This document shows positions 7,781 through 34,916 of a DNA stretch of 38,820 nt, in pieces. Origin of the DNA: a virus (lineage: Duplodnaviria; Heunggongvirae; Uroviricota; Caudoviricetes); IMG/VR virus record IMGVR_UViG_2908572912_000003, one strand, 5' to 3'. Position 1 is the stretch's first letter. Each line of letters begins with the position of its first letter. Made by a program: the position numbers and the translations under genes. Under the pieces are notes generated by a model. The model was not told the DNA's origin, ran no database searches, and was given only the letters and a program-made list of their open reading frames with translations.

Positions 7781-7808
7781 TGGTGGGCTGGCGGGAGTTG
7801 AACCCGCG
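7781..7808 (-). other. Attachment-site core: 3'-terminal 28 nt of a tmRNA (ssrA)-like gene, not a complete RNA gene
   Basis: Minus strand reads CGCGGGTTCAACTCCCGCCAGCCCACCA, nearly identical to the recalled E. coli ssrA 3' end (GCGGGTTCAACTCCCGCCAGCTCCACCA); the sequence 5' of it is AT-rich and not RNA-like. Confidence 0.55.
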
Positions 7809-7937
7809 TTCTATTAATGGTAAATAACTGTAATTTATAGCTTTTATTTGAAGTAGATCACATGCGTATCCTTTGTGGATACTTGAGGTATATGTTATAT
7901 ATAAAACATATATTTACATGAAGTAAATGGATGTTTT

Positions 7938-8561
7938 ATGACAATACAGGAAATAATTCAGCAACGTAATATTCGTAGCTTGTTTCATTTTACACATAGC
8001 GATAATCTAACTTCCATTTTAGATAATGGCCTTATGTCTCGTTCAGAACTTGATAATGAAAATAATGAATATAATTATAATGATGAAGAAAGGATTGATG
8101 GTCATCCAGATGCGATTTGTTTGTCCGTAAGTTACCCTAATGCAAAAATGTTTTATAAATATAGATGTTTAAAGCCTGGGGACTGGGTTATATTAGAAAT
8201 CAATCCATCTGTTCTTTGGGCTAAGGATTGCGCTTTTTATCCTACCAACGCAGCTTCGAATAACGTTCGTTTTATAAATCTTGATTTGATGAAAGGAGCT
8301 GAGGCATTTAGTGCTTTGTTTTCAGAGAATGTTTTTGGGATTCAGAGAGATGTAAACCTTCCAAGTGAGTATACGACGGATGTTCAAGCTGAAATACTGG
8401 TATTTGAAAAAATTCCTCCCTCATATATTATAAGCACTTTTCACCCTAACAAAGAATCTGCTGAACATTTCAAGAGATTATATCCACAGACAATACAGAG
8501 ATCTTATGATAATCTTAATGCTAGAACATTTTATTCTCAGAGGCATTATTATTTAGGATAA
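7938..8561 (+). CDS. DarT-like DNA ADP-ribosyltransferase toxin (DUF4433-like)
   Basis: 207 aa, AT-rich; N-terminal LFHFTHSDNLTSILDNGLMS resembles the recalled DarT NAD-binding motif; candidate catalytic Glu in AEILVFE near residue 150-155; a partner ORF follows 4 bp downstream. Confidence 0.5.
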   Translation: MTIQEIIQQRNIRSLFHFTHSDNLTSILDNGLMSRSELDNENNEYNYNDEERIDGHPDAICLSVSYPNAKMFYKYRCLKPGDWVILEINPSVLWAKDCAFYPTNAASNNVRFINLDLMKGAEAFSALFSENVFGIQRDVNLPSEYTTDVQAEILVFEKIPPSYIISTFHPNKESAEHFKRLYPQTIQRSYDNLNARTFYSQRHYYLG

Positions 8562-8564
8562 GTT

Positions 8565-9254
8565 ATGGCCGTTAGACCTGTTTTCGTCCCTACAAACGCA
8601 GGGAACTTACTATCGATCACGAAGGATGTGGATTTTCCTTGGGCTCCTGGTATGTCTAAAACGCAAAAGCAAAAATCGATCAGGGCGTTACATACAGCAG
8701 CGAATGAGCAGGGATTGAACTCTTTGTTGGAAATTTCTAGTAAATCCGAAGATGCGCTGGGGGTAGCACTTAGTGCATTTAATCTAAGAATAAAGACGAA
8801 AAGACTTGGGAAAGAGTTTACAGTTGAATCTGCATTTCAAGCAAGTAAAGTATTTGAAATGGGAGGACCATATGTCGATATCTTAGATAAAAGCTCGATA
8901 GAAGCAAAAAAAGATATGAGATTAAAGGAATCTGGGGGATTAGTTAACTTCAAATTTTATAATACAATATGGCCCATTGTCCCCAGGACTGCTTTTTATG
9001 ATTGGTTATATTTGAGTGCGCTCAATCAAAACAAAAATCTAGCACTCCATCTATTAAATTTTGATGGATTTACTGATATTGAATTTAATCCAGCGAAATC
9101 TATTAATTGCCAAGCCAGAGCAGCTGCACTTTTTGTCTCTTTAGTAAGACGAAATATGTTAGATGATGTTTTATCTTCAAAGGATGGTTTTTTATCAAAA
9201 TTAGCATCTCATTATGGTGTTGAAAATTATTCTATTCAACATACATTGATATGA
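8565..9254 (+). CDS. Partner of the DarT-like gene; possible NADAR (YbiA-like) domain antitoxin
   Basis: 229 aa with AGGA ribosome-binding site; LSAFNLRIKTKRLGKEFTVESAFQASKVF resembles the YbiA/NADAR segment FSNFAAWPIKVDGKTWPTSEHYFQAQKF; no macrodomain motifs (NAAN/GGGV) found. Confidence 0.4.
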   Translation: MAVRPVFVPTNAGNLLSITKDVDFPWAPGMSKTQKQKSIRALHTAANEQGLNSLLEISSKSEDALGVALSAFNLRIKTKRLGKEFTVESAFQASKVFEMGGPYVDILDKSSIEAKKDMRLKESGGLVNFKFYNTIWPIVPRTAFYDWLYLSALNQNKNLALHLLNFDGFTDIEFNPAKSINCQARAAALFVSLVRRNMLDDVLSSKDGFLSKLASHYGVENYSIQHTLI

Positions 9255-9256
9255 AT

Positions 9257-9280
9257 AATGGCCTGTAAAGGCCATTTTTA
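9257..9280. terminator. Bidirectional terminator between the convergent DarT-partner and integrase genes
   Basis: AATGGCC tgtaaa GGCCATT hairpin flanked by T-runs, filling the 32-bp gap between the two stop codons. Confidence 0.5.
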
Positions 9281-9286
9281 TCTAAA

Positions 9287-10456
9287 TTAATATCTATTTT
9301 TTCTATTTAAAGATGTATTTCCATCATATTCTTTGAGGTATGAGCCATAATGTCTAAATAACATCTCTGGTCCTTTATGACCCATTTGAACCGCAAGCCA
9401 AAACAGGTTTGCTCCCCGGCTGATATGGCTGGTGGCGAATGTATGTCTGGTTTGATATGGGTTTCTGTAACGAATACCTGCTTTCCGCAATGTTGGCACC
9501 CATGCTTTTTTTCTAATTGCATCAGCACTTGCCCAAGGCTTATTGGTCTTTGGATCTTCAAAGACTGTAGCATCCTTCATGAATGTAAATGGCTTCTGAT
9601 TTATCAGCGCCAACATTGCATCTTCTGTCAGTTCAACTTTACGAGTACCGGCTTTTGTCTTTGTTCCTTTGATAACACCGACAACACTTGCGCTCTGGAC
9701 ATGGGCAGTTTTTCCAACAAAGTCGATATCACGCCATCGAAGGGCACATAATTCAGAACTACGCAGGCCTGTATGTATAGCGAACCGGAACAGATTCTCC
9801 CATTGTTTGTTTCCGGCTGCTGCTAGTAATGCATCAACTTCTGCTGGTGATAGCGGATCAACCACGTAGCTGCTTTCTGCTTCTGACTTATCACTTTGGT
9901 AGCGCGAAGCAGTTACCAACGATACGGGGTTAATTTGAAGTACCCCATCGGTTACGGCTTCATCAAGTGCTGACCGCAGGAAAGATAACTGGTTGCGAAT
10001 TGTTTTTAAGGTCGTTTTCTGGCTTTGAATCCACGCTTTCAGGATTGCTGGTGTTAATTCACTTGCAGGGCAAATGTGGAGTGAGGCTAACGCACTACGG
10101 CATTTTTTATAACCACCAATCGTAGATGGTGAAAGTTTTCTCGTTTCGCAGATTTCAAGGTATTCGTCCAGGTACATTTTTACCGTTTTGCCTGCAGCAG
10201 CATTACCAAAAATTTTCAAACGAGCAGAACGGGGAAAATATTCCGCATAAATGAATGTTCCCCTTTCGATCTTATTATGAATTTCGCCGAGTGTGCGCTC
10301 GGCGTATTTAATGTTCTTTGGTGTTACTTCCAGATTGGAAAGAGGCTCACGACATCTAACTCCTTTGTAGGTGAAAGTTATATTGATCGTTTCGCCCTGG
10401 CGGTGTTTCCTGATTGTTACGCCGCGCGGTAGTTTGAGCAGTTTTGTCTGGCCCAT
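9287..10456 (-). CDS. int: Prophage tyrosine integrase
   Basis: 389 aa; catalytic region motifs (HTGLRSSELCALRW, HTFATSHI, GHKGPEMLFRHYGSY). Confidence 0.9.
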   Translation of the reverse strand: MGQTKLLKLPRGVTIRKHRQGETINITFTYKGVRCREPLSNLEVTPKNIKYAERTLGEIHNKIERGTFIYAEYFPRSARLKIFGNAAAGKTVKMYLDEYLEICETRKLSPSTIGGYKKCRSALASLHICPASELTPAILKAWIQSQKTTLKTIRNQLSFLRSALDEAVTDGVLQINPVSLVTASRYQSDKSEAESSYVVDPLSPAEVDALLAAAGNKQWENLFRFAIHTGLRSSELCALRWRDIDFVGKTAHVQSASVVGVIKGTKTKAGTRKVELTEDAMLALINQKPFTFMKDATVFEDPKTNKPWASADAIRKKAWVPTLRKAGIRYRNPYQTRHTFATSHISRGANLFWLAVQMGHKGPEMLFRHYGSYLKEYDGNTSLNRKNRY

Positions 10457-10623
10457 TTTGCAACCTCACTAAGATCAATCCACCTCTCCTTAACGCCTTC
10501 AACCTTTAAAACCTGAACACCTTCACGCCAAACACCGCGCTGTACACGTTTGTTTATTGCTTCAGGAGTTTCGCCAGTTTCTTTGCAATAAGTTGAGATT
10601 GGAACACAATCGAGGTTCAGCAT
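10417..10623 (-). CDS. xis: Excisionase-like protein
   Basis: 68-aa ORF immediately upstream of and overlapping the integrase; ATG at 10623 with GGAG upstream; a GTG at 10635 is an alternative start. Confidence 0.45.
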   Translation of the reverse strand: MLNLDCVPISTYCKETGETPEAINKRVQRGVWREGVQVLKVEGVKERWIDLSEVAKWARQNCSNYRAA

Positions 10624-10682
10624 ATGTTTCTCCACTTAGCCCGCTGCACACGGGCAGTAATATCAAATTCCAGTCCTGATAA

Positions 10683-10898
10683 TTAATTTTGTTCCCTGGT
10701 TGCTACCTGTTTTATTGGCCTGATGCTGTCCAGTAGCAGACGGCGACGCATGTTAGGTGCCCCCCAACGGTAACCAGTCTTTTTGTCGTAGGATTCACAA
10801 CGTCCGGCAACCCAGGACGTTTCAGTGGAATGTAATTTCATCCGCTTTTCACCGTCTCGGGTGATAACAATTCCTGTATGAGTTTTTATCACGCTCAT
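10683..10898 (-). CDS. Hypothetical phage early protein
   Basis: 71-aa ORF; ATG overlaps the stop of the upstream gene (ATGA). Confidence 0.45.
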   Translation of the reverse strand: MSVIKTHTGIVITRDGEKRMKLHSTETSWVAGRCESYDKKTGYRWGAPNMRRRLLLDSIRPIKQVATREQN

Positions 10899-11257
10899 TT
10901 CTTAGTCTCTGGTGCTTTCGGCATTACTGCCCAGTGAGTGATATTGACGTTTTCAAGGTCCCCGACCTGAAATGTCCACTGCCATTCTCCGGTTTCTTTT
11001 TGCCCCCAGGTGTACCAGAGAGAACGCCAGCCAATTAGCCAGCCTTCTCCGTTAGCATCGAATAACAAAACACTTTCATTTGCTGGTGGCAGTTCAGTTG
11101 ACACTGGTATTGCTTTGTTTTCCTGTGCTGCACATTTAGCTTCAAGCGCATCGAATTTGCGCACCAGGTATTCAGCATCTGTTTCATTCACTTTCAGATC
11201 TCGCGGTACACATCTCCCACGAAGAAACCCTTCCATTTCGAAAACATTCATGCACAT
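10895..11257 (-). CDS. Hypothetical phage protein with Trp-rich C-terminus (DUF551-like)
   Basis: 120-aa ORF in an operonic chain with its neighbours; C-terminal GWRSLWYTWGQKETGEWQW segment. Confidence 0.45.
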   Translation of the reverse strand: MCMNVFEMEGFLRGRCVPRDLKVNETDAEYLVRKFDALEAKCAAQENKAIPVSTELPPANESVLLFDANGEGWLIGWRSLWYTWGQKETGEWQWTFQVGDLENVNITHWAVMPKAPETKK

Positions 11258-11784
11258 TTGCGTAACTCCGATAACTCGTTAAAACGTTCCATAAACATCC
11301 CGTAGGCATGGCCCGGTGCCAGTGGAATCACGTTGAACATCTCTGTTGCGGGGATGCCTTCCAGTACAGGCCAGAAAGAGCCATCATCAAGCCCGAGATC
11401 GCGGCGTTCGGTTGCCAGCATGATGAGATCGGCATATTTCACAGGCGTGCTCATAACCGGGGGTAACCCGTATTTCTCACGGATTACGGCGTCTATTTTT
11501 TCTTCCATCCGTTTATAGTCAGGAAGAAGGCGTTTCAGTGGCGCGGGGATGTCCTGACAATAAGCTTCTGTTGCATCATGCATTAACGCTTCAAAAGCAA
11601 ATTCCTGCGGCACCAACTGGCTGCAAAGAACCGCATGTTGGGCGACGCTGTAGAAGTGCGAAAGATGACCGGCAAAGCGACAGATATTTGAAAGGGAAAC
11701 CGCGATATCGTTAATATCGATGTCGTCTTTATTTATCCTGTCATAATAAAAATGCTTCCCGGAAAAAGTTTTAATAAATGACAT
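11248..11784 (-). CDS. HD-domain phosphohydrolase (YfbR-like 5'-deoxynucleotidase family)
   Basis: His...HD metal-binding pattern (SVAQHAVL...ALMHDATEAY); ATG at 11784 with GGAG upstream (the longer ORF from 11811 starts with GTG). Confidence 0.6.
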   Translation of the reverse strand: MSFIKTFSGKHFYYDRINKDDIDINDIAVSLSNICRFAGHLSHFYSVAQHAVLCSQLVPQEFAFEALMHDATEAYCQDIPAPLKRLLPDYKRMEEKIDAVIREKYGLPPVMSTPVKYADLIMLATERRDLGLDDGSFWPVLEGIPATEMFNVIPLAPGHAYGMFMERFNELSELRKCA

Positions 11785-11911
11785 TTTGTTCTCCACGTAT
11801 ATGCGCTGCACCGCGCTGAATTCTGGTAAAAAGAATCCCTCACCATCCGGCGATTATTGAGTAAATTACGTTTCCATAAATGCCCCCGCAGGGGCATTTG
11901 CAGTAATGAAA

Positions 11912-12736
11912 TCAGGCGGTGAAAGTACCAATAAAGGTTTCTACTTTGCTGTCCTTGAATTTCTCAACAAGCAGATCACGAAATTCGTTAGCCATTTCTT
12001 CCTGCACCGCCTCCAGCTGAATAATGCGCAGAACCAGTACAGGACGATCGCCAGTGATAATACTGAGGCGTAATTTAAACGGACGTTCTTTCAGACCTTC
12101 AAACGGAACGCATTTAAATTCAAATGCCACTGGCATAATGTCTTTGGTCTTCGCTTCGACAGACTCCATCAGGGAGCGTTTGCCGCTGAAGTCATTATCT
12201 TCAAAATCAGCGGTCTGGTTTGCTTCAATCGTGATTTTACGGACAGCCGCAGCCGCTTTTGTTGCCTGAATAGCGTCACCATTAGCATCAAAGCCCACAA
12301 GATAGTCGGCCCAGTCTTCAATCCATTCTGCCAGTGACTTCTGGGAGTTACGCTCGCCGTTAACAGACAACAGAGCAGAGAACGGTGCTGTCTTTTTCAG
12401 TTTGAGTGTGGCGGTGTTATCTGCGTGACCTGGTTCATCAATAGTACCCAGGTTAAGCACACTGACGGCACGCATATTATCAGCATCGATAAAGCAGCGG
12501 GTGCCTTCATCTGCAAGATCTTTAGAATAACGGGTAAAGTCATCGATGCTGGCAGTGGAAAGCGCACCACGGAAACGGAAGCGATTTAAATTAAATTTTT
12601 CCAGATCATGAATGCGGAAATTCTCAGGCAATGCCACAGCATCGGCACCAATCTTACTGATAATTTCATTAACACCCTGAGCAGAAATAAGGGCATGGAT
12701 TTGATTAATTGAGGTTGCGTCTAAGTTCTGAGACAT
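11912..12736 (-). CDS. Phage early protein, YfdQ-like (DUF2303)
   Basis: 274-aa ORF, ATG with GAGGA upstream; sequence recalled as similar to CPS-53 yfdQ-type prophage proteins. Confidence 0.5.
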
Positions 12737-12801
12737 AATAAGTCCTCACTATATAAAGATATTCAGTGATGAGATAAATAATCAGTTAATTAAAAACGAT
12801 A

Positions 12802-13164
12802 TTAACGACCTGCTGCGCGGAGTTTTCCGTCAGGTTCACCGGCAAGAGTCAGTAACTGTCCCTGGTCTTCCTGCAGAATAGTCAGGCGACCACCGCGATT
12901 GACATACATCGGCGTTTCGGTGGTGTCTTCTTCGGAAATTTTCCCGCGGTTAGTCGGGCGAACATATGAGAGTTTGTGTTTGATTTTCACACGGTTCTCA
13001 TCAAATGGTTCGATTTCCAGGTTGAGTGAGACCTTACCTTTGGTTTTCGTGTTCATCACACCGGAAGCGACTTCACTGAGAACTGCGCCGATTTTGGTTT
13101 CAAATACGCCGCCGTCCAGCTCCCCGATAAATGCCTGCACGTCAGTACTGCGTTCGCTAGCCAT
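12802..13164 (-). CDS. Hypothetical phage early protein
   Basis: 120-aa ORF starting MASERSTDVQ... with GAGGAG upstream; the longer upstream extension to 13482 has junk-like composition. Confidence 0.5.
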   Translation of the reverse strand: MASERSTDVQAFIGELDGGVFETKIGAVLSEVASGVMNTKTKGKVSLNLEIEPFDENRVKIKHKLSYVRPTNRGKISEEDTTETPMYVNRGGRLTILQEDQGQLLTLAGEPDGKLRAAGR

Positions 13165-13632
13165 TTTGCTGCTCCTCATCATATCGACCCTGCAAGGCCG
13201 ATTAGTTTCTCCACAAAACAGAGAAGAACACCTGCGGTGGCAGCCGCCCGGATGGATTGGGTTATGAGCCCGTCGTCCGGTGATGCTCTTCTCTGTTTTG
13301 TAAAAAGGACGGTACCAGCCGGAAGCAAGGGTACAAACTGGTACCGCCAGGACTACACACAGCATAAAGTTGTGGTGCCGGGTGCCTCCCGGTGCCTGGC
13401 GAAGGTTGCACACCAGGCGGGTGGGTATCCACAGAAGGTCGACTGTCAGCCTCAACCTTAACCCGCGTGCGCTGAGCCGCATTCACCACAACGCTAAGGA
13501 TTCTCTCTGGTTGAAAATACTTAGCTGTTATGTGCCTGCTTTTAGCCACATCAGGCGAGGTGGACCTAGTTATTCCCCAACAACAAGGATTCGGTTAATC
13601 TGGTTATCCCCAACAACGCAAAAGGAAAAGAA

Positions 13633-14067
13633 ATGTCCGGTAATATCTATACGCTGTACAAATCCCACTGTGAAAATGTTGGAAAGTATCGGGGCATTGA
13701 AATCAGTGGGGTAGTGTCATCAGCCGAAATAAGCAAAGTTGAATCAAGGGCAACATTACTTACTCTTTTGGACCTTGTCTTACATGAGCACCGGAAGAAA
13801 TTCGGCACTCCCTATAATCAGTTGAATGGGAAAAAGGCTCTGGTTCACCTTATTCTGATGAAGCATCACTGGATGCCAAAACAGATTAATGAGATGAAAT
13901 TTGATGAACTTCTTCTTTCAATTCAGGATGAACTCACACTTGATAAAATAAGCGTAACCGCCCAGAAATTTTTAGATTATCGAGACTGGAGATCACAAAT
14001 TCATCACTTTGATGATTTTGACGAAAATGAATGGGATCCTAATTTGTCTGCACAATATCTAAAGTAA
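13633..14067 (+). CDS. Hypothetical acidic protein (144 aa), opposite strand to the early operon
   Basis: AT-rich ORF with AAGGAAAAG ribosome-binding site; ends 5 bp before the IS1 left end; no recognisable motifs. Confidence 0.5.
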   Translation: MSGNIYTLYKSHCENVGKYRGIEISGVVSSAEISKVESRATLLTLLDLVLHEHRKKFGTPYNQLNGKKALVHLILMKHHWMPKQINEMKFDELLLSIQDELTLDKISVTAQKFLDYRDWRSQIHHFDDFDENEWDPNLSAQYLK

Positions 14068-14127
14068 CATCCGGTGATGCTGCCAACTTACTGATTTAGT
14101 GTATGATGGTGTTTTTGAGGTGCTCCA

Positions 14128-14403
14128 GTGGCTTCTGTTTCTATCAGCTGTCCCTCCTGTTCAGCTACTGACGGGGTGGTGCGTAACGGCAAAAGCACCG
14201 CCGGACATCAGCGCTATCTCTGCTCTCACTGCCGTAAAACATGGCAACTGCAGTTCACTTACACCGCTTCTCAACCCGGTACGCACCAGAAAATCATTGA
14301 TATGGCCATGAATGGCGTTGGATGCCGGGCAACTGCCCGCATTATGGGCGTTGGCCTCAACACGATTTTACGTCACTTAAAAAACTCAGGCCGCAGTCGG
14401 TAA
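14128..14403 (+). CDS. insA: IS1 InsA
   Basis: [43 protein letters not shown]... matches recalled IS1 InsA. Confidence 0.85.
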
Positions 14404-14825
14404 CCTCGCGCATACAGCCGGGCAGTGACGTCATCGTCTGCGCGGAAATGGACGAACAGTGGGGATACGTCGGGGCTAAATCGCGCCAGCGCTGGCTGTT
14501 TTACGCGTATGACAGGCTCCGGAAGACGGTTGTTGCGCACGTATTCGGTGAACGCACTATGGCGACGCTGGGGCGTCTTATGAGCCTGCTGTCACCCTTT
14601 GACGTGGTGATATGGATGACGGATGGCTGGCCGCTGTATGAATCCCGCCTGAAGGGAAAGCTGCACGTAATCAGTAAGCGATATACGCAGCGAATTGAGC
14701 GGCATAACCTGAATCTGAGGCAGCACCTGGCACGGCTGGGACGGAAGTCGCTGTCGTTCTCAAAATCGGTGGAGCTGCATGACAAAGTCATCGGGCATTA
14801 TCTGAACATAAAACACTATCAATAA
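14322..14825 (+). CDS. insB: IS1 InsB reading frame (expressed as the InsAB' transposase by -1 frameshift)
   Basis: ...[36 protein letters not shown]... matches recalled IS1 InsB. Confidence 0.8.
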
Positions 14826-14840
14826 GTTGGAGTCATTACC

Positions 14841-15011
14841 GGCAAAACCATTCCGGGTAACGATGATGTGGTGAAGCCCGTCAAAGAGCAGGCGGAAAAC
14901 AAAATCGATGGTGCAGTTGCGCTGATTATGGCGGTTGGCAGAGCCATGCTGTACGAGAAAGAAGACACGCTGTCTGACCACATTGAGTCCTATGGGATCC
15001 GCTCGCTTTAA
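14841..15011 (+). pseudogene. 3' remnant of a terminase large-subunit-like gene, truncated by IS1
   Basis: Frame is open from the first base after IS1 (…[24 protein letters not shown]…, 56 codons) and ends just before the portal gene; no start codon or N-terminal portion present. Confidence 0.4.
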
Positions 15012-15022
15012 CTGAGGTAATT

Positions 15023-15205
15023 ATGATCATGCTGATTCTCGCGCCTCTGGTGGGCGTGCTGGGGGCGCTTTTGCTGGCGTATGGTGCCTGGCTGATTTAT
15101 CCCCCGGCGGGGTTTGTTGTTGCCGGGGCGTTGTGCCTGTTCTGGTCGTGGCTGGTGGCGCGATATCTCGACCGTACACAGTCGTCTGTCGGCGGAGGTA
15201 AATAG
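15023..15205 (+). CDS. Small hydrophobic (membrane) protein
   Basis: 60-aa ORF with GAGGT ribosome-binding site; predominantly hydrophobic; abuts the portal start. Confidence 0.4.
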
Positions 15206-16446
15206 TGTTCTTTTCGGGATTATTTCAACGAAAAAGTGACGCACCGGTGACCACGCCAGCAGAGCTGGCGGATGCTATCGGGTTGTCCTACGACACCTAT
15301 ACCGGAAAGCAGATCAGCAGCCAGCGGGCCATGCGACTGACGGCGGTTTTTTCCTGTGTCAGGGTGCTGGCAGAGTCGGTCGGGATGTTGCCCTGCAATC
15401 TGTATCACCTGAACGGCAACCTGAAACAGAGAGCCACCGGCGAACGTCTGCATAAGCTGATCTCCACGCATCCCAATGGCTATATGACGCCGCAGGAGTT
15501 CTGGGAGCTGGTGGTCACCTGTCTGTGCCTGCGGGGCAACTTTTACGCCTACAAAGTGAAAGCATTTGGCGAAGTGGCTGAACTGCTGCCCGTCGATCCC
15601 GGTTGTGTGGTACCGAAGCTTAACAGTCGCTGGGAGCCGGTCTATCAGGTCACATTCCCGGACGGCTCCACGGATGTACTGAGCCAGGAAGATATCTGGC
15701 ATGTGCGCACGCTGACGCTGGACGGTCTGGTGGGACTGAATCCCATCGCCTATGCCCGCGAGGCAATATCGCTGGCAGCTGCGACCGAAGAGCACGGGGC
15801 CAGACTGTTCAGCAATGGTGCGGTGACGTCCGGTGTGTTGCGTACAGAGCAGACGCTGTCGGATCAGGCTTATGAGCGCCTGAAGAAAGATTTTGAGGAG
15901 CGTCACACCGGGCTTGGCAATGCTCACCGCCCGATGATCCTTGAGATGGGGCTGGACTGGAAGTCGATGGCGCTGAACGCCGAGGACAGCCAGTTCCTGG
16001 AAACCCGCAAGTTTCAGCTTGAAGAAATCTGTCGTCTGTTCCGGGTGCCATTGCACATGGTGCAGAACACCGATCGCGCCACCTTCAACAATATCGAAGA
16101 GCTGGGGCTGGGATTTATCAACTATTCACTGGTGCCGTATCTGACCCGCATCGAACAGCGGATCAACACCGGACTGGTACGAAAAAGTAAGCAGGGCGTT
16201 TATTACGCCAAATTTAACGCCGGGGCGTTACTGCGCGGGGATATGAAGTCCCGTTTTGAAGCCTACGCCACCGGGATCAACTGGGGAATTTACTCTCCCA
16301 ATGACTGCCGCGATCTGGAAGATATGAATCCGCGTCCCGGTGGTGATGTCTATCTCACACCGATGAACATGACCACGAAACCCTCCGATGGCAGTAAAGC
16401 CGGTAAGCAGAAGGATAACGCCAATGCAGACGAAACAACGTCTTGA
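15205..16446 (+). CDS. Phage portal protein (HK97 family)
   Basis: 413 aa; GTG start with GGAGG upstream; position upstream of the protease and major capsid genes. Confidence 0.8.
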   Translation: MFFSGLFQRKSDAPVTTPAELADAIGLSYDTYTGKQISSQRAMRLTAVFSCVRVLAESVGMLPCNLYHLNGNLKQRATGERLHKLISTHPNGYMTPQEFWELVVTCLCLRGNFYAYKVKAFGEVAELLPVDPGCVVPKLNSRWEPVYQVTFPDGSTDVLSQEDIWHVRTLTLDGLVGLNPIAYAREAISLAAATEEHGARLFSNGAVTSGVLRTEQTLSDQAYERLKKDFEERHTGLGNAHRPMILEMGLDWKSMALNAEDSQFLETRKFQLEEICRLFRVPLHMVQNTDRATFNNIEELGLGFINYSLVPYLTRIEQRINTGLVRKSKQGVYYAKFNAGALLRGDMKSRFEAYATGINWGIYSPNDCRDLEDMNPRPGGDVYLTPMNMTTKPSDGSKAGKQKDNANADETTS

Positions 16447-24582: not shown

Positions 24583-24586
24583 TACC

Positions 24587-25925
24587 CATAAGCGCTAACT
24601 TAAGGGTTGAACCATCTGAAGAATGCGACGCCTCGGTGCCTCGTTAAGACGATGCCTCGCGTTCTTCAATTGCGTTTTGTAGGCTGTCAGGGATACTGTC
24701 CCACGAATGGCCACCTGTAAGCTCCAGATGACCATTTTTGTTATTCTCCACAACGAGTTAGTTCTTCTTTTCGGATCCGGCACTTCTGGGGGGGAAATCC
24801 AGCGATGGCTGGATTATGTCGTCAATTAAAAATGCGGCGAGTAGATTAGCAAATATCCACGCTTTCGCGAGTTCAGGTTCCTTTGCACGCAAAGCATCCA
24901 GGTGCAGCAAACTTTTGAGCCGCTTAAAAGCCAGTTCAATTTGCCATCGCAGACGGTAACAATCAGCCACTTGCTCTGCTGAATATTCATCTTCCGGTAA
25001 TGATGTTAGCAATAGCACATGGCCCGCTGCTTCCAGCGTTTCCGCCTGAACTACTCGTCCTTTTCGACGATTCTCGCTGAGCAGTCGGGTTTTACTGATT
25101 AATGCTTTTTCGGGAGGAAGTGATACGGCAATGAGACGTGCCGGAAAGGGAGCTCCGGCTTTTTTATTACCTGAATTGCCTATCATTACAGTGGTTTCAC
25201 CGTTCTTACCGCAATCCAGCCCGCGCAGAAAACCCATCATGTCAAAGCGCATTCCTTCTGCAGTTAACCAGCGCAATCCTCGCCAGTGAACCCGGACGAT
25301 ATAATCAGCTTCTCCAAAAGCAAGTGAGCGGATACATTCGGGACGCGAACCGAATCCCCGGTCAGCAATGCGTATCTCGTCTGCCGTTTGCGCAAATCGG
25401 TCCAGCCGTTCAGCGTCTCTGCTGTCGGTTAGCTCAAAATCAGTGAACTGACAGGTATGAGGATCATATCCCATATGTAGTCGCCATTCAGCGCTGCCGC
25501 CCCCGGGCGCACTGATTGCTGTTCCATCGACAAGACGCAATCTCTTTCCGCTTGTACAACCCGTAACTGCGGCGCGTACAGCAAGTGTTTGTGCGGCAAG
25601 TATGCCAAACCAGTCGGCGGCATTCCGCAGCCGCTTCAGGAGAGCCACGTCAGATAATGTTGCAACGTCATGGAGCTGAGCCCATGCAGTGACTTCACGT
25701 AATGACATCCCCCCGGGGCCGTAAGCCAGCCCCAGACGTAGCAGAGTTGCAGCATCACGAATTTCGCGGCGGCGGGTTAGAGCCCCGGCATTACGTGCCG
25801 AAGTATCCAGTTCTTCGGGCTTACCAATATGGGCCAGAATTGCTGACCAGTTATCGTGAGAGTAATTCATCGGCACGTTAAATCATATCAGGCGTAATAC
25901 CACAACCCTTAAGTTAGCGCTTATG
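24587..25925 (-). mobile_element. IS186 (IS4 family) insertion
   Basis: Terminal inverted repeats CATAAGCGCTAACTTAAGGGTTG (24587-) and CAACCCTTAAGTTAGCGCTTATG (-25925); direct repeats GGCTGATACC(C) on both flanks; 1339 bp. Confidence 0.85.
24758..25876 (-). CDS. insL: IS186 transposase (InsL-like, IS4 family)
   Basis: 372 aa containing MNYSHDNWSAILAHIGKPEELDTSARNAG..., matching recalled IS186 transposase. Confidence 0.85.
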   Translation of the reverse strand: MPMNYSHDNWSAILAHIGKPEELDTSARNAGALTRRREIRDAATLLRLGLAYGPGGMSLREVTAWAQLHDVATLSDVALLKRLRNAADWFGILAAQTLAVRAAVTGCTSGKRLRLVDGTAISAPGGGSAEWRLHMGYDPHTCQFTDFELTDSRDAERLDRFAQTADEIRIADRGFGSRPECIRSLAFGEADYIVRVHWRGLRWLTAEGMRFDMMGFLRGLDCGKNGETTVMIGNSGNKKAGAPFPARLIAVSLPPEKALISKTRLLSENRRKGRVVQAETLEAAGHVLLLTSLPEDEYSAEQVADCYRLRWQIELAFKRLKSLLHLDALRAKEPELAKAWIFANLLAAFLIDDIIQPSLDFPPRSAGSEKKN

Positions 25926-28072: not shown

Positions 28073-29148
28073 ATGATAAAGTCACGCTACGGGTAAATGG
28101 CCGGGAGTGGAATGGCTGGACATCGGTGCGCATCGGTGCCGGTATTGAACGGCTGACGCGGGATTTCAGTGTGGAGATCACCCGCCAGTGGCCGGGAGAT
28201 GAGGGTATCACCACGCTTCAGCCGCGTATTAAAAACGGTTCAAAAGTGGAAGTGCTGATTGGTGATGAGCTGGTGATCACCGGCTGGGTGGAGGCGACTC
28301 CCGTTCGTTACGATGCCCGTTCGGTCAGCACCGGTATTGCTGGGCGTAGTCTGACCGCTGACCTGATTGACTGTGCAGCCGAACCGACACAGTTTAACGG
28401 ACGATCGCTGGTTCAGATTGCGCAGGCGCTTGCTGCGCCTTTCGGCATTGAGGTGGTGAACAGCGGTGCGCCGTCTGGTGTTATTCCTGATGTCCAGCCT
28501 GATCACGGTGAAACGGTGATTGAGGTGATCAACAAAATACTCGGTCAGCAGCAGGCGCTGGCTTACGACGACCCGCACGGCAGGCTAGTGATTGGCGGTA
28601 TTGGCTCAACGCGGGCACATACCGCGCTGGTACTTGGGGAAAACATCCTTTCCTGCGATACGGAGAAGAGTATCCGGGAGCGGTTTTCAGTTTACCAGGT
28701 GGCGGGGCAGCGTGCCGGAAATGACGATGATTTCGGTGAGGCCACCACCACCGCGCTGCGGGCCCGCACAGAAGACGCATTTATTGCCCGTTACCGTCCG
28801 ATGTATATCAGGCAGACAGGGCAGGCTACGGGGGCAGGCTGTATTGCCCGTGCGGACTTTGAAGCCCGGCAACGGGCGGCGCGGACGGATGAAACCACCT
28901 ATGTGGTGCAGGGCTGGCGACAGGGTAACGGTACGCTGTGGCAGCCCAACCAGCGGGTGATTGTCTTCGATCCGGTCTGTGGTTTCGACAATACCGAACT
29001 GCTTGTCTCGGAAGTCACGTTTACTCAGGACCAGAACGGCACCCTGACGGAAATCCGAGTCGGCCCACCTGATGCTTATCTGCCTGAACCCGAAGCCCCC
29101 GGCGCGCGGAAAAAGAAAAAAGCCAGAGTACAGGAGGACCCGTTCTGA
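28069..29148 (+). CDS. Baseplate hub protein (Mu gp44 / P2 gpD-like)
   Basis: 359 aa; start overlaps the upstream stop; assignment by position. Confidence 0.6.
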   Translation: MNDKVTLRVNGREWNGWTSVRIGAGIERLTRDFSVEITRQWPGDEGITTLQPRIKNGSKVEVLIGDELVITGWVEATPVRYDARSVSTGIAGRSLTADLIDCAAEPTQFNGRSLVQIAQALAAPFGIEVVNSGAPSGVIPDVQPDHGETVIEVINKILGQQQALAYDDPHGRLVIGGIGSTRAHTALVLGENILSCDTEKSIRERFSVYQVAGQRAGNDDDFGEATTTALRARTEDAFIARYRPMYIRQTGQATGAGCIARADFEARQRAARTDETTYVVQGWRQGNGTLWQPNQRVIVFDPVCGFDNTELLVSEVTFTQDQNGTLTEIRVGPPDAYLPEPEAPGARKKKKARVQEDPF

Positions 29149-29696
29149 TGAGGACGATTGAAGCCATGCAGCGACAACTCCTCGGCCTGATTGGGCGGGC
29201 CGTGGTGAAAAGCATCAGTGCCGCCACGAAATGTCAGACCGTGGATGTGTCCCTGATTGCCGGTGAACCCAAAGCCGGGGTTGAACATCTTGAACCCTAC
29301 GGTTTTACCGCAAGGGCAAACAGCGGTGCGGAAGCGGTGGTGTTGTTTCCGGATGGCGATCGTTCTCATGCGGTGGTTGTTACGGTGTCGGACCGGCGCT
29401 ACCGCCTGAAAGGGCTGCAGACGGGTGAGGTGGCTGTCTATGACGATCAGGGGCAGTCCGTGACGCTGACCCGGGAGGGGATCGTGGTGGACGGTGCAGG
29501 TAAAACGATCACGTTTCGCAATGCACCTGAAGCACGTTTTGAAATGGACCTTGAAGTGACCGGACAGGTGAAAGACCTGTGCGACTCCGGCACCACCACC
29601 ATGTCAGCGATGCGGCTTGCCTATAACGGGCATCGTCACAGAGAGAACGGTCAGGGCAGTAACACCGACAAACCTGATAAAGCGATGGAGGCATGA
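29148..29696 (+). CDS. Baseplate assembly protein V (spike, Mu gp45-like)
   Basis: 182 aa in conserved order. Confidence 0.6.
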   Translation: MRTIEAMQRQLLGLIGRAVVKSISAATKCQTVDVSLIAGEPKAGVEHLEPYGFTARANSGAEAVVLFPDGDRSHAVVVTVSDRRYRLKGLQTGEVAVYDDQGQSVTLTREGIVVDGAGKTITFRNAPEARFEMDLEVTGQVKDLCDSGTTTMSAMRLAYNGHRHRENGQGSNTDKPDKAMEA

Positions 29697-30121
29697 TGGA
29701 ACTGTGGCTGACGGTGAACGGTAAACGCACCTGCGCCAGCGCACCGCTGGATCCGCTGACCCGCGCCGTGGTGATTTCCCTGTTTACCTGGCGGCGGGCG
29801 GAGCCTGATGACAATGTCGACGTCCCGATGGGATGGTGGGGGGATACCTGGCCTACGGTACAGAATGACCGTTACGGCTCCCGACTGTGGCTGCTTCAGC
29901 GCAGCAAACTGACCAATCAACTGGTGCAGACGGTAAGGGGGTATATCCGCGAATGCCTGCAATGGATGATTGATGACGGCGTGGTGTCCCGCATTGATCT
30001 GGATATCCGCCGCACCGGGATTAATGAACTGGGTAACAGTATCGCTCTCTGGCGTCGTGACGGACCGGTAATGATTTCTTTTGATGATCTGTGGAGTGCG
30101 ATAACGCATGGCGGACAGTGA
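29693..30121 (+). CDS. GP46-family baseplate protein
   Basis: 142 aa in conserved order. Confidence 0.6.
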   Translation: MMELWLTVNGKRTCASAPLDPLTRAVVISLFTWRRAEPDDNVDVPMGWWGDTWPTVQNDRYGSRLWLLQRSKLTNQLVQTVRGYIRECLQWMIDDGVVSRIDLDIRRTGINELGNSIALWRRDGPVMISFDDLWSAITHGGQ

Positions 30122-31166
30122 ATTTCAGCGCCCGACGCTGGCAGAAAATATCAGTATGCTCCGTAACGATTTATTCGCCAGGCTGGACGTCAGCGACACG
30201 CTCCGGCGCATGGATGAAGACGTGCGGGCAAAGGTGTATGCGGCGGCGCTGCATACGGTTTACGGGTACATCGATTATCTGGCAATGAACATGCTGCCTG
30301 ACCTGTGCGATGAGTTCTGGCTGGCGCGACATGCTGCGATGAAACGGTGTCCGCGCAAGGGAGCCACGGTTGCCAGCGGGTATATGCGCTGGGAAGGTGT
30401 CAGCGATGGCCTGAAGGTGACTGCCGGGAGTGTTATTCAGCGCGATGACCTGGTGCAGTACACGACAACTGACGATGCAATCAGCTCCGGTGGTGTCCTG
30501 CGCGTGCCGATCGCCTGCTCAAGTGCAGGTGCGGTCGGTAACGCTGACGACGGTACGGCATTAATCCTGGTCACGCCGGTGAATGGTCTGCCGTCTTCCG
30601 GTGTGGCTGACACCCTGACAGGCGGATTTGATACTGAAGAGCTGGAAACGTGGCGCGCCCGCGTCATTGAGCGGTATTACTGGACGCCGCAGGGCGGGGC
30701 TGACGGGGACTATGTCGTCTGGGCTAAAGAAGTGCCTGGCATTACCCGCGCATGGACATACCGACACTGGATGGGAACGGGGACTGTCGGTGTGATGATT
30801 GCCAGCAGTGACCTGATTAATCCCATTCCGGAAGAATCAACGGAAACGGCGGCAAGACAACATATCGGGCCACTGGCCCCGGTGGCAGGCTCTGATTTGT
30901 ATGTGTTCAGGCCGGTGGCACATACGGTGGATTTTCATATCCGTGTGACGCCGGACACTCCGGAAATACGGGCTGCCATCACCGCGGAGTTGCGTTCGTT
31001 CCTGCTGCGTGATGGTTATCCGCAGGGAGAACTGAAGGTATCGCGTATCAGTGAGGCGATTTCCGGTGCGAACGGGGAATACAGCCATCAGTTGCTTGCA
31101 CCGGCAGACAATATCTCCATTGCAAAAAATGAACTGGCGGTACTGGGGACGATTTCATGGACGTGA
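30108..31166 (+). CDS. Baseplate J-like protein (Mu gp47)
   Basis: 352 aa in conserved order. Confidence 0.65.
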
Positions 31167-31741
31167 CAAACGATGATTACATCCGTCTGTTGTCGGCACT
31201 GTTGCCCCCCGGTCCGGCGTGGTCAGCCAGCGATCCGGCGATTGCCGGTGCGGCACCGTCATTAACCCGCGTTCATCAGCGTGCGGATGCCCTGATGCGG
31301 GAGCTGGATCCGCGCACCACCACCGAACTGATAAACCGCTGGGAGCGTCTGTGCGGCCTGCCGGATGAATGTATTCCGGCAGGGACGCAGACCCTTCGCC
31401 AGCGTCAGCAACGGCTGGATGCGAAGGTTAACCTGGCGGGCGGCATCAATGAGGATTTTTACCTTGCGCAGCTTGCTGCCCTGGGCAGACCAGATGCCAC
31501 CATCACGCGATACGACAAAAGCACGTTCACCTGCTCATCGGCCTGTACTGACGCGGTGAATGCGCCGGAATGGCGGTATTACTGGCAGGTCAATATGCCA
31601 GCTGCCACCAACACCACCTGGATGACATGTGGCGATCCCTGCGATTCCGCACTGCGTATCTGGGGGGACACCGTTATCGAGTGCGTGCTTAACAAACTCT
31701 GCCCGTCGCATACCTACGTAATTTTTAAATATCCGGAGTAA
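31157..31741 (+). CDS. Tail protein, Mu gp48 / YmfQ-like (DUF2313)
   Basis: 194 aa; N-terminal ...[15 protein letters not shown]... motif recalled from YmfQ-like proteins. Confidence 0.6.
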
Positions 31742-31744
31742 TCC

Positions 31745-32671
31745 ATGCATCGTATAGACACGAAAACCGCGCAAAAGGATAAGTTCGGCGCGGGTAAGAA
31801 CGGTTTTACCCGTGGTAACCCCCAGACAGGCACGCCTGCCACCGATCTGGATGATGACTACTTTGACATGTTGCAGGAGGAACTTTGCAGTGTTGTGGAG
31901 GCATCCGGTGCCAGTCTGGAGAAGGGGCGGCACGATCAGTTGCTTACCGCACTTCGCGCGCTGCTGTTAAGCCGCAAGAATCCGTTTGGCGATATCAAAT
32001 CGGACGGCACGGTGAAAACGGCTCTCGAAAACCTTGGTTTGGGAGATACAAGCGGATACGTGGGACGCTGGGTGAATACCCGGGTTTTCACGTCATCAGG
32101 TACGTACACCCCGACGCCAGGAACAAAACGGATCAGGGTCACAATAACGGGCGGCGGTGGCGGAGGGGGCGGCTGTAAGGCTATATCCAATAATGAAACG
32201 TTTTTCGGTGCTGGCGGCGGGGCAGGTGGGACAGTAATCACCACGCTGATCCTGACGAAGGATAGTTATCCTGTCACTATCGGCGCAGGTGGGGCCGGCG
32301 GCGTTAGTGCGACGAACGGCCTCAAGGGCGGTGATAGCTCGTTCGGATCGGTAATAGCCCCTGGTGGTGAAGGTGGTGGAAAATCAGGAGTCACAAACAC
32401 GAACGGTGGTAACGGCGGTGTGCCAAGTACTGGCGGTATCAACATCATTGGTGGAAATGGAGGCGACGGTCAGTCCGGAAATATCGGCGTCAGCGGTGAA
32501 GGCGGAACATCGTACTGGGGGGGCGGTGGACGCGCAGGCGCTGGCGGTGGTGTTAGTGGTAAGGCATATGGTTCAGGTGGCGGTGGCGCATACGATGCCG
32601 GTTATAGCGGAACCAGTATGACAGGCGGGAAAGGTGCTGCTGGGATTTGTATTATCGAGGAGTTTGCATAA
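31745..32671 (+). CDS. Tail fibre protein, glycine-rich C-terminal region
   Basis: 308 aa; conserved N-terminus ([22 protein letters not shown]) then GGxGG-rich repeats. Confidence 0.65.
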
Positions 32672-33087
32672 TGAATGCGTCATATGCAGTTATTGAAAAT
32701 GGGATGGTTGTGAATGTCATTGTCTGGGATGGCGAGGCTGAATTCACAGTGCCGGATAATCAGCAGCTCATTGATATTTCTGATATCAGTGAGCATCCCG
32801 GAATCGGCTGGGGGTATTCAGACGGGGTATTTACTGCGCCGCTCCCTCCGGAACGTTCTCATGATGAACTGGTAGCTGACGCTGAACAGAAAAAACAGTC
32901 GCTGATAGACGCAGCAATGGCCAATATCAGCGTGATTCAGTTAAAGCTGCAGGCCGGGCGCAAACTGACGCAAGAAGAAACTACCCGACTTAACGTTGTG
33001 CTGGATTATATCGAGGCTGTGACGGCAACAGATACCAGCATTGCACCGGATTTTGAGTGGCCGGATGAACCGTGCTTCGCTGAGTAA
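32671..33087 (+). CDS. Tail fibre assembly protein (Tfa-like)
   Basis: 138 aa; ATG overlaps the fibre stop; N-terminal AVIENGMVVNVIVWDG motif. Confidence 0.6.
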   Translation: MNASYAVIENGMVVNVIVWDGEAEFTVPDNQQLIDISDISEHPGIGWGYSDGVFTAPLPPERSHDELVADAEQKKQSLIDAAMANISVIQLKLQAGRKLTQEETTRLNVVLDYIEAVTATDTSIAPDFEWPDEPCFAE

Positions 33088-33347
33088 AGTCTGTTGAGGA
33101 GAAGCGGTTTAATTGTAACTCAATTCTTTTTGTGTAATAAAAGTAGGACAAAACTGTGACACATAAAGCCTCGCAATGGTTTGCAAGGCTTTGAACGCTT
33201 CTATATTGAGGATGTGACGCGGTTTCGTTTATTTCCATTCTATATATTGATGTCGATTTTTATGAATATAGAGCATACGGATAAACTGCAGTGTGATTAG
33301 AGTCAAAGTAATAGTTGTTGACTCTAATCATTGCAAAGTGACTTTAC

Positions 33348-34415
33348 TTAATGAAATTTATCTCGGATGAATTGTTGCGATGGTTTTTCAATGAATATAT
33401 ATGACATATAGCTAATTGCCATTAATGTAAGCATGAATAAAATGAATACCTTGGGGCTGTAAAAAAGATCGCGTCCATAGCCAATCTTGTCAGCTAAATA
33501 AACAACAATGATTTGCAAAGGAAAATGTAAAAGATAAGATGAATAACTGATATCGCCCAACCATTCAATTTTTTTCCCAAAATCGTTTCGTATTGCGCTA
33601 ATTGATACAAGGAAAAATATTATGGAGGTAAATCCGAATAAGATAATTGAGAATATATCTGCTACTTGCAGGGTAAATATAACTCCCCATGAGATCAATA
33701 GAAAAACACAAGCAAAAATAAAAAATAACTTTGCGCTAATATTTTTTATGGCCGCAATCGTAATTTTATAAGTCAGACCACCAATAAAGAAAGAGAATGC
33801 GCCGATCATTATGGGATTGTTAATTTTGAAAAAGTAGTACGATAATGCAACTATTAAAATTGATATGAATGTTGTTTTTGATGTGAACTTGCATAATATA
33901 AAAAATATCATGTACATAAGTACTTCAATCGACACGGACCATGTCGGGGCGTTGAAGGACCAACCTCGCTCAAATCCCCATGATTGAATCATCAATAAAT
34001 TCAGAATGGCATGGTAAATGTCATTCATAGGATAAACAAAAAAATAATTATGACTTTTAAAGAAAATAATTTGTAATATTGCCACGACAGCAAATGTAAA
34101 TATATAAAGTGGATATAATCTACTGACACGGTTAACTATAAAAGTTTTTGCTGAGGTTTTATTGCTGTGTATATTGTCAGCGTATAGATAAAAAAATATG
34201 AATCCAGAAATCATAAAAAATAATTCGACAGCATATAAACCGTAATGATAAAAGACGGAAAAAAATTCATAAAAAGGTTGGCGGTTTATGATTATGTCAG
34301 ATGCAGCATTCTTTTTCATAAAAAAATGTTGCCAATGCCATAACACAACGGAAAGTGCGGCAAATCCTCTCAGAACATCCAGGGTATATATTCTCTTCCC
34401 AAAAACATTCGTCAC
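33348..34415 (-). CDS. Acyltransferase family 3 membrane protein (probable O-antigen/LPS acetyltransferase)
   Basis: 355 aa, polytopic membrane protein with N-terminal DVLRGFAALSVVLWH motif; strongly AT-rich; GTG start with GAGG upstream; located after the tail fibre genes. Confidence 0.8.
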   Translation of the reverse strand: MTNVFGKRIYTLDVLRGFAALSVVLWHWQHFFMKKNAASDIIINRQPFYEFFSVFYHYGLYAVELFFMISGFIFFYLYADNIHSNKTSAKTFIVNRVSRLYPLYIFTFAVVAILQIIFFKSHNYFFVYPMNDIYHAILNLLMIQSWGFERGWSFNAPTWSVSIEVLMYMIFFILCKFTSKTTFISILIVALSYYFFKINNPIMIGAFSFFIGGLTYKITIAAIKNISAKLFFIFACVFLLISWGVIFTLQVADIFSIILFGFTSIIFFLVSISAIRNDFGKKIEWLGDISYSSYLLHFPLQIIVVYLADKIGYGRDLFYSPKVFILFMLTLMAISYMSYIFIEKPSQQFIRDKFH

Positions 34416-34886
34416 AACGAACCTCTTTTAATAAAGTCAAGTGATAATGAAAGATAAATATTGTAAACGAAAAAACACTGGACTGGAACATATATCTCTG
34501 CCTGTAATTTAACCAGGATAATTTTACTAACGCAGTCATAATTCGTTCATGTATACCAGATGAAAGTACATGTTCTATGAAATAGGGTTTTGCCTGGAGT
34601 TTGAAGGTTTTTAACGATTATACCTGTTTAATCGACTCCCCATGTTTTTTGACATTATCCACCGCACACGATACTGGATGCCAGGTAAACTGATTTGCTG
34701 GCATAAAGTCACTGAGAATTTTTTACCAACAATATCTTGCCACATCTTTTCCCGCACAGTTTCGGCAATAGAATCAGCGGGCAGCGGACATCAATATTCA
34801 CCAGACATTGATCTGCCGCACTATCTGACCGGTGTCCTGCTGAGAATACTAATTTCTTTTTTTTGCAAGTGCTGTCCAATCATGAT

Positions 34887-34916
34887 TGGGGGGGGCCGGC
34901 GGAGTTGAAACCGCAG
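34887..34916 (-). other. Degenerate tmRNA 3'-end-like sequence (possible older att remnant)
   Basis: Minus strand CTGCGGTTTCAACTCCGCCGGCCCCCCCA shares the GGCGG(G)AGTTGAA(C)CCGC core with the att core at 7781-7808. Confidence 0.3.

Follow-up and report, generated by a model that had tools for sequence, protein, structure and literature searches.

Two mobile elements stacked at the ssrA gene of Escherichia coli AR_0369, with a relic attachment core inside the prophage cargo

How many mobile elements are stacked at a locus in which the end of an integration target gene recurs? The question is raised by a stretch of 38,820 nucleotides (nt), hereafter the window, from the IMG/VR virus record IMGVR_UViG_2908572912_000003, which is 100% identical to positions 3193289–3232108 of the chromosome of Escherichia coli AR_0369 (NZ_CP027140.1). 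Within it lie two sequences resembling the 3′ end of ssrA, the gene of transfer-messenger RNA (tmRNA): core 1 at 7781–7809 and core 2 at 34887–34916. An earlier note, made from the window alone, read these cores as the two bounds of a defective prophage, setting it apart from a satellite on the left and from a third island with GIY-YIG and EcoRII genes on the right, all acquired by successive integrations at one ssrA site whose intact gene would lie beyond the right edge. Tandem island arrays at tRNA and tmRNA genes are reportedly the subject of the Islander and TIGER work and of Williams 2003, "Traffic at the tmRNA gene." On integration into such a gene, the gene is restored and a displaced fragment is left behind, and arrays are called by one fragment and one integrase per member (Islander criteria, PMC4383910). 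The tmRNA gene is the most enriched integration target (PMC4383910) and among the two most diverse integration sites in E. coli and Salmonella (PMC3603311). The window contains two mobile elements stacked downstream of ssrA, a P4-like satellite and a prophage related to phage LLS, and not three. The reading as a whole, in which satellite and LLS-like phage are stacked at ssrA and core 2 is an imported relic, is in our judgment very probably correct.

The intact gene was found 235 nt past the right edge of the window, where the earlier note had expected it, and not at an unrelated locus. It occupies 3232343–3232705 of the record on the minus strand (window-equivalent 39055–39417), and smpB is the next gene after it. 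Hence, an intact target gene terminates one end of the array, as in the Islander criteria. To the left, foreign DNA extends over approximately 55 kb up to a tRNA-Ile gene annotated at 3177473–3177548 of the record and comprises the satellite, insertion sequence (IS) elements, a lactate-utilisation block, and a CP4-57-like remnant. ARAGORN finds no tRNA and no tmRNA in the window, and Rfam at gathering score returns the C4 and isrK RNAs of the satellite and nothing else. A short-word BLAST search of a 132-kb region revealed no additional ssrA-like sequence where the array ends on the far left, near ileY. The satellite and the prophage each contain an integrase gene (6394–7596 and 9287–10456, respectively); the proposed GIY-YIG/EcoRII island (34910–39054), that is, the 4.1-kb segment between core 2 and ssrA, has none in the annotation. 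Since this segment lacks an integrase of its own, the array in the window has two members instead of three.

Core 1 is a genuine displaced ssrA 3′ end. It is located on the minus strand at 7772–7809, of which 7781–7809 is the ssrA part. The 22-nt T-arm/acceptor sequence of ssrA, CGCGGGTTCAACTCCCGCCAGC, has a single exact match in the window, at 7787–7808 on the minus strand, and was matched in 0 of 100 shuffles. The 29 nt at 7781–7809 equal the last 30 nt of the AR_0369 ssrA minus one T, namely the partner of G3 in tmRNA, and nine more shared nucleotides, AATCATGAT, follow the CCA end at 7772–7780. A tmRNA body does not accompany them: ARAGORN and Rfam at gathering score report nothing here, and a permissive Rfam search gives only a 5′-truncated tmRNA match (7781–7950, E 2.5e-5). 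Further along the minus strand, at about 7716–7746, stands an intrinsic terminator consisting of a strong hairpin and a T-run (−31.4 kcal/mol, z −5.0). Its homologue in K-12 is the terminator behind ssrA, at the left attachment (att) site attL of CP4-57; where the satellite adjoins the gene, the window copy would end ssrA transcription. The earlier note had described this core as nearly identical to the tmRNA 3′ end, followed by a terminator hairpin and devoid of an RNA body, and each of these features is borne out.

The origin of core 1 can be appreciated from strain 2020S05-235, in which the stretch between the ssrA T-arm and the start codon of the integrase gene is near-identical to window 7600–7809 save for the missing T. 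Because the satellite arm is fused to intact ssrA in that strain, core 1 and the terminator represent the ssrA-proximal arm of the satellite, severed from the ssrA body. For the prophage, core 1 constitutes the distal junction (attR); for the satellite, it is what was once attL. As the displaced, same-orientation 3′ fragment at the distal end of the prophage, it lies beside the satellite integrase and separates prophage from satellite, in agreement with the earlier proposal. Strain 2020S05-235, with the satellite arm on intact ssrA and no prophage, provides the comparison of strains with and without the prophage at its exact att junctions. A distal ssrA fragment of the satellite's own is not visible, that end being cut by an IS5-family element. 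The junction of terminator, core 1, and the DarTG genes is common to 472 genomes; the copy in strain H2 adjoins a different P4-like element and has the T undeleted. The same T deletion occurs in psaA of K-12. Judging from the missing nucleotide, a tmRNA lacking the G3·U identity pair would probably result if the prophage were precisely excised.

The same region shows a weak, 5′-truncated Rfam match to the Salmonella island small RNA (sRNA) IsrM (7713–7950, minus strand; 26.5 bits compared with a gathering score of 376). The match rests on the T-arm-like stretch and on the terminator, which matches the 3′ end of the IsrM model, and the H2 version of the terminator is nearer to the IsrM consensus. 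A displaced ssrA fragment and a P4-type att-arm terminator may thus have given rise to the 3′ part of IsrM.

The satellite to which the severed arm belongs is P4-like and truncated (163–7780, minus strand), as assigned from gene content, Rfam RNAs, and synteny with the 2020S05-235 element. It contains the C4 and isrK RNAs, an Icd-like gene, a helix-turn-helix (HTH) regulator, a sid-like gene, delta/ogr, psu, a cargo open reading frame (ORF) of 743 amino acids (aa), and the integrase. The primase is absent, and this end has been removed by the IS5-family element at the left window edge. Compared with the complete satellite of 2020S05-235 (primase, Icd-like, HTH, sid-like, delta, psu, cargo gene, and integrase, adjoining intact ssrA), it is syntenic with 91–97% DNA identity. 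Its tyrosine integrase (6394–7596, minus strand) is of the P4/CP4-57 IntA type, with the Pfam domains Arm-DNA-bind_3, Phage_int_M, and Phage_integrase, and shares 62% identity with IntA of the K-12 CP4-57. The 743-aa ORF (4137–6368, minus strand; 33–36% guanine plus cytosine [GC]) fills the psu–int cargo slot, which in the related 2020S05-235 satellite holds a restriction endonuclease. It has no match in Pfam, NCBIfam, PHROGs, PADLOC, or the PDB sequences and could be a defence gene not yet characterised; among the unknowns of the window it is probably the most interesting one.

Does the prophage, then, end at core 2 or does it reach ssrA? It is a defective LLS-like myovirus, delimited at 7810–38820 and on to window-equivalent 39054 by annotation, comparison with a phage of AH02, and synteny with LLS. 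This gives a length of about 31 kb from core 1 to intact ssrA. Its integrase (9287–10456, minus strand; Pfam Arm-DNA-bind_2 and Phage_integrase) is 86% identical to that of LLS over 383 aa and is accompanied by an excisionase gene (10417–10623, minus strand; PHROG excisionase, 7.7e-44). Synteny with LLS runs int–xis–…–yfdR–yfdQ–yfdP, and the structural genes are those of a sheathed-tail, e14/Mu-like phage. Compared with the 43.6-kb AH02 phage, the prophage has lost its lysis, replication, and immunity genes entirely and the terminase for the greater part. At the deletion that eliminated the entire early region and the larger part of the terminase stands an IS1 (14128–14825), and an IS421 (24758–25876) is inserted after the tape-measure gene.

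The limit toward ssrA was defined with the attachment site (attP) of LLS (PQ299149; Genome Res 2025), for which the authors deduce, by homology, integration at the ssrA 3′ end (PMC12315714). In this free phage the attP region is arranged as tail fibres, invertase, cargo, flank, a "tmRNA pseudogene," cargo, int, xis, exonuclease, and yfdR/Q/P-like genes. In AR_0369, the 125 nt downstream of ssrA, followed by the terminator GCCCGCTTATGCGGGC, align with the LLS attP arm. An arm made up of ssrA 3′ end, flank, and terminator, by which ssrA is restored on integration, is thus present. Because the flank adjacent to ssrA and GCCCGCTTATGCGGGC constitute an LLS-type attP arm, the prophage extends to intact ssrA, and the EcoRII, Dcm, and GIY-YIG genes consequently fill the phage cargo slot at that end. 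Hence, the genes for the GIY-YIG nuclease (PD-T4-3), Dcm, and EcoRII are the prophage's own cargo and not a separate island. The 125-nt arm was also considered as a purely phage sequence, which was rejected: it is the native downstream flank of ssrA, present at K-12 psaA too, of which the phage holds a copy. This flank occurs in 4319 of 5426 E. coli genomes, mostly joined to ssrA and in up to six copies per genome; in K-12 it is also found at the far end of CP4-57, behind psaA, the displaced fragment. The phage copy of host sequence beyond the gene covers approximately 155 nt with about 93% identity.

For the crossover, the empty target was taken from 2020S05-235, and attP was rebuilt from both prophage ends, checked against LLS, and compared with the two junctions. 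Strand exchange would have taken place somewhere within the 31-nt identity block ACGCGGGTTCAACTCCCGCCAGCTCCACCAA, and the usual behaviour of such sites would place it in the T-loop. That the integrases of satellite and prophage are both specific for ssrA is likewise predicted, from their homology. The perfect 14-bp palindrome CCAATCATGATTGG overlaps the CCA end of ssrA and occurs in the window at 34876–34889. It is intact in all full copies examined (live ssrA, K-12 psaA, LLS attP, core 2, and the second AH02 copy), even those with decayed surroundings, and might be a site for protein binding or RNA processing.

Core 2 therefore requires an explanation other than that of a prophage end, and its anatomy provides the starting point. 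Together with its flank it forms a relic attachment site on the minus strand at 34803–34909, recognised by local alignment to the ssrA 3′ end and downstream sequence over approximately 115 nt (score 75; shuffles mean 16.6, maximum 28). Both cores thus align to the genome's own ssrA better than chance. The ssrA-derived part is confined to 34887 to about 34909, where TCAACTCC-GCCGGCCCCCCCC stands against TCAACTCCCGCCAGCTCCACCA; the earlier note was right to see a real, degenerate ssrA copy here and drew it too long, the remainder up to 34916 being a hairpin stem. This part has decayed, has neither the ACCA end nor the G3·U partner, and, as it reads, could not function. It shares a one-C deletion with K-12 psaA, and the T-loop heptamer TTCAACT is intact. 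To its left, homology to the sequence downstream of intact ssrA covers about 85 nt (c. 34803–34889) and ends within a decayed C-terminal fragment of the YedK/SRAP family (34624–34822, minus strand), which lies immediately downstream of the relic flank and contains stops and a frameshift (79–81% DNA match to yedK; tblastn to YedK residues 150–220, E 1e-8). Against so decayed a copy, one might hold that core 2 resembles the tmRNA 3′ end by chance, since its ssrA-like part is short, matches at only about 17 of 22 positions with one gap, and was in part an unrelated hairpin stem as first drawn. The score of 75 over the adjoining 85-nt flank homology compared with a shuffle maximum of 28, and the alignment of core and flank also with K-12 psaA, LLS attP, and the second AH02 copy, render chance a negligible prospect.

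The hairpin on the other side (34907–34947) is a bidirectional terminator of 40 nt, AAACCGCAG…CTGCGGTTT, identified by folding and genome comparison. It supplies the GCGGTTT that the first reading took as core. As the ssrA T-arm of core 2 this motif was rejected, the hairpin being present also without neighbouring ssrA-like sequence. In phage contigs, intact hairpin–ssrA fusions are present, and the stem and the T-arm may yet share a common ancestry. In the sampled rows of 842 matching records, homology to the GIY-YIG side starts at 34906–34908; the exceptions are records in which the core 2 side is present as well and a single short match (91 nt). In the two such genomes inspected, RM13322 and H2, pinE or a tail-fibre assembly gene is situated left of the hairpin, with no ssrA-like sequence. 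On the plus strand, opposite to ssrA, Rfam gives a weak match to the Shigella sRNA CssrB (34828–34943; 19.9 bits, E 0.046) that spans the relic flank, core 2, and the hairpin.

As a direct repeat of the ssrA 3′ end and flank, core 2 with its flank has the correct orientation, and in most genomes the homology on the GIY-YIG side stops no more than 2–3 nt from the position equivalent to the T-loop. Both are as expected if satellite, prophage, and GIY-YIG/EcoRII segment were three independently integrated islands, with core 2 as the junction of the last two. Several results stand against it, beginning with the missing integrase and the LLS-type phage arm that lies beside EcoRII at the ssrA-proximal end. 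In the circular 43.6-kb AH02 phage, the acyltransferase gene, core 2, hairpin, GIY-YIG, Dcm, EcoRII, flank, and a second decayed core are contiguous, and the same block is carried as a whole in the AH02 chromosomal copy, which is integrated at dusA beside a different integrase. Core 2 is carried by only about 41–51 E. coli genomes; where inspected, it has the acyltransferase module on one side and GIY-YIG on the other. Among the sampled E. coli genomes, none joins the core 2 flank to a real ssrA and none shows a presence/absence polymorphism of the GIY-YIG/EcoRII segment. The right part of the presumed core is the hairpin stem, found also where no ssrA-like sequence follows, and the GIY-YIG gene is chimeric, which indicates homologous recombination. 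Three islands are accordingly very improbable. The earlier claims that core 2 bounds the prophage and that the GIY-YIG/EcoRII genes are an island of their own do not hold, and of the successive integrations at one ssrA those of satellite and prophage remain. Core 2 is a fossil att site inside the prophage cargo and no boundary today.

The chimeric gene reveals how core 2 reached its position. In sliding identity comparisons, window 34907–35300 is 94–96% identical to ssrA prophages of the pinE/tfa type and 98.5–99.5% identical to the core 2-bearing locus of Z0117EC0116, in which an AAA ATPase gene follows the GIY-YIG gene in place of Dcm–EcoRII. From about 35300–35500 rightward, the identities reverse (98–100% versus 90–96%). 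Since the switch falls within the GIY-YIG gene, the gene is recombinant, with the crossover at about 35300–35500. Its 3′ half goes with core 2, and its 5′ half goes with the Dcm–EcoRII–ssrA side. The recombinant gene means that homologous recombination brought the acyltransferase–core 2 module together with the Dcm–EcoRII–ssrA side. These identity patterns show core 2 to be a sequence imported in this way rather than one formed by integration at this ssrA. At the Z0117EC0116 locus, no partner att site or matching integrase was found near core 2. Beside its block of core 2, GIY-YIG, and AAA ATPase and phage DNA-ejection genes, this locus contains a satellite-like element (3584–12661 of that stretch) with integrase, HTH, antirepressor, ash, and TOPRIM/DUF927 primase genes, which may be a satellite embedded in a prophage.

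Where core 2 came from in the first place is a separate matter. Viral contigs hold an intact junction of hairpin, TTCAACTCCCGCCAGCTCCACCA, and flank, and in one of them (L125) CP4-57-like island genes adjoin. Such intact counterparts identify core 2 as a once genuine att junction that survives as a decayed copy. It may first have become internal when stacked elements accreted or, alternatively, when recombination occurred at the shared hairpin. Under accretion, an att-flanked cassette or prophage remnant without integrase, containing PD-T4-3 with or without the restriction-modification genes, would have stood between ssrA and the prophage and would have been fused to it by excision at the outer sites, leaving core 2 as an internal scar. 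The form of the internal junction (hairpin, core, flank) agrees with this, as do phage contigs with the same junction and an intact ssrA 3′ end, some beside CP4-57-like island genes, and the occurrence at ssrA of arrays of up to three elements, with multiple flank copies in one genome. A free-standing cassette, in contrast, was not seen among the sampled genomes; the hairpin is an ordinary module boundary in hundreds of genomes, beside pinE or tfa and without ssrA-like sequence; and the truncation of the core 2 flank by the yedK-like pseudogene fragment points to further illegitimate events. We regard ancestral accretion as possible, though rather unlikely; it concerns the ultimate origin only and is compatible with import of core 2 as the explanation of the present locus.

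In the preferred reading of a satellite and an LLS-like phage stacked at ssrA, each element would have been integrated by its own tyrosine integrase, recombining within the last approximately 30 nt of the tmRNA gene. The P4-like satellite, with its CP4-57 IntA-related integrase, would earlier have adjoined the ssrA body, its arm providing the 3′ end and the terminator. An LLS-related temperate myovirus would then have inserted between the ssrA body and the satellite arm by an attP that comprised the last 29–30 nt of ssrA, about 125 nt of native downstream flank, and a terminator. The phage copy would now complete the functional ssrA, and the old copy, core 1, would have been left about 31 kb off beside the satellite integrase. 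Satellite first and phage second is the simplest order; the reverse, with the satellite entering the displaced fragment, is also compatible with this genome taken alone. IS1 and IS421 later crippled the prophage. Defence cargo occupies both of its ends, with DarTG at the integrase end and PD-T4-3 and the EcoRII restriction-modification pair at the ssrA end, and core 2 entered the phage lineage with the acyltransferase module via homologous recombination in the PD-T4-3 gene.

Several points weigh against this account. The specificity of both integrases is a prediction from homology. The prophage-free strain 2020S05-235 defines the prophage junction, as the strain comparison proposed in the earlier note was meant to do, and it is compatible with either order of arrival, given that the satellite could enter a displaced fragment and has lost its own distal end to the IS5-family element. 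The intact 7-nt T-loop of core 2 makes residual recombination activity possible on sequence grounds. Finally, the genome counts derive from BLAST summaries and a handful of inspected loci. That core 2, with its T-loop heptamer and CCAATCATGATTGG, might act as a weak substrate for an LLS-type integrase appears highly doubtful. If it did, the 4.1-kb PD-T4-3/EcoRII cassette would be cis-mobilizable and could be looped out or swapped between ssrA phages, and relic att sites in cargo would offer phages a general route for the gain of defence modules.

The cargo genes themselves are distributed over both ends of the prophage. Between the distal attachment site and the integrase lies a pair encoding DarT and a DarT1-associated NADAR antitoxin (7938–9254, plus strand; Pfam DarT and NADAR-DarT1). 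LLS and phiNP contain other genes in this slot, which thus acts as a variable cargo position. At the opposite end, after the tail-fibre genes, an Acyl_transf_3 acyltransferase is encoded (33348–34415, minus strand; Pfam; GC 35%), which accompanies core 2 in only about 41 E. coli genomes. Its relatives in species-representative genomes are distant (21–48% identity) and none is enterobacterial; the closer ones (31–48%) are mostly from Planctomycetes, namely, Novipirellula, Rhodopirellula, and Pirellula. With distant relatives only, the species-representative scan, aimed at an acyltransferase gene beside a live ssrA in other species, was uninformative on the origin of core 2. The chimeric GIY-YIG nuclease gene (34967–35740, minus strand) is assigned to PD-T4-3 by PADLOC (3.5e-140). 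It is followed by the annotated genes of a Dcm-type methyltransferase (36144–37577, plus strand) and an EcoRII-type endonuclease (37612–38820, minus strand), which are located beside the ssrA-proximal attachment arm and recur as identical proteins at the same position in other ssrA prophages. In RM13322, the order is baseplate, tail fibres, pinE, GIY-YIG, Dcm, EcoRII, and ssrA, and the same order is found in viral contigs. At least 80% of a query made of EcoRII, terminator, flank, and ssrA 3′ end is covered at one place in 261 genomes.

The integration of CP4-57, with its displaced fragment psaA, is the textbook K-12 case of integration at ssrA. The present locus resembles it in a downstream P4-type integrase, separated from the ssrA 3′ end by approximately 200 nt that include a homologous terminator, and in a displaced fragment that lacks the T of the G3·U pair, which in psaA is followed by the same 125-nt flank. 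It differs in that the element is a P4-like satellite (psu, delta, sid-like, Icd-like, and C4 RNA) with an integrase only 62% identical, detached from the ssrA body and missing its distal end. Common to the prophage and LLS are the integrase (86%), xis, and yfdR/Q/P-like early genes; in both, attP comprises about 29 nt of ssrA 3′ end together with the flank and the same terminator and is bordered by a cargo slot on either side. LLS, however, is viable, lambdoid according to its authors, and equipped with different cargo, whereas the prophage described here is sheathed-tail and defective and contains DarTG, PD-T4-3, EcoRII restriction-modification, the acyltransferase, and a relic second att site.

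Larger arrays exist at the same gene. In strain H2, ssrA is followed by a P2-like prophage, a 45-nt fragment, an LLS-like remnant, core 1, and a P4-like element; three-element arrays with different crossover positions thus occur at ssrA. The H2 P2-like prophage has a reverse-transcriptase gene at its ssrA end (15358–16131 of the H2 stretch), by appearance retron-type cargo. Like tandem tRNA/tmRNA arrays in general, the AR_0369 array has an intact target at one end, same-orientation displaced 3′ fragments, and an integrase per element. In contrast to these, core 2 is without an integrase of its own and lies inside an element, where a caller using fragments only would over-split. In the streptococcal model of integrative and conjugative elements (ICEs) and cis-mobilizable elements (CIMEs), the latter accrete beside integrative elements. 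Core 2 is comparable in being an att-like scar between an integrase-less cargo block and an integrase-bearing element; here, by contrast, there is no sign of autonomous cargo movement, and the immediate entry was by homologous recombination within a gene.

That islands stack at ssrA is well documented, and the present locus leaves the current understanding of this known phenomenon unchanged. The locus serves as a worked example of how element boundaries are read at the busiest integration site of E. coli. It also calls for caution, in that fragments of the target gene can survive in prophage cargo and be carried along with it, reaching even phages with dusA as their integration site. Because such fragments persist inside cargo, a boundary caller that relies on them alone would split one prophage into two islands. 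Both ends of the ssrA prophage, as well as the psu–int slot of the satellite, are cargo slots for defence genes, and defence cargo is swapped by homologous recombination within a shared defence gene.

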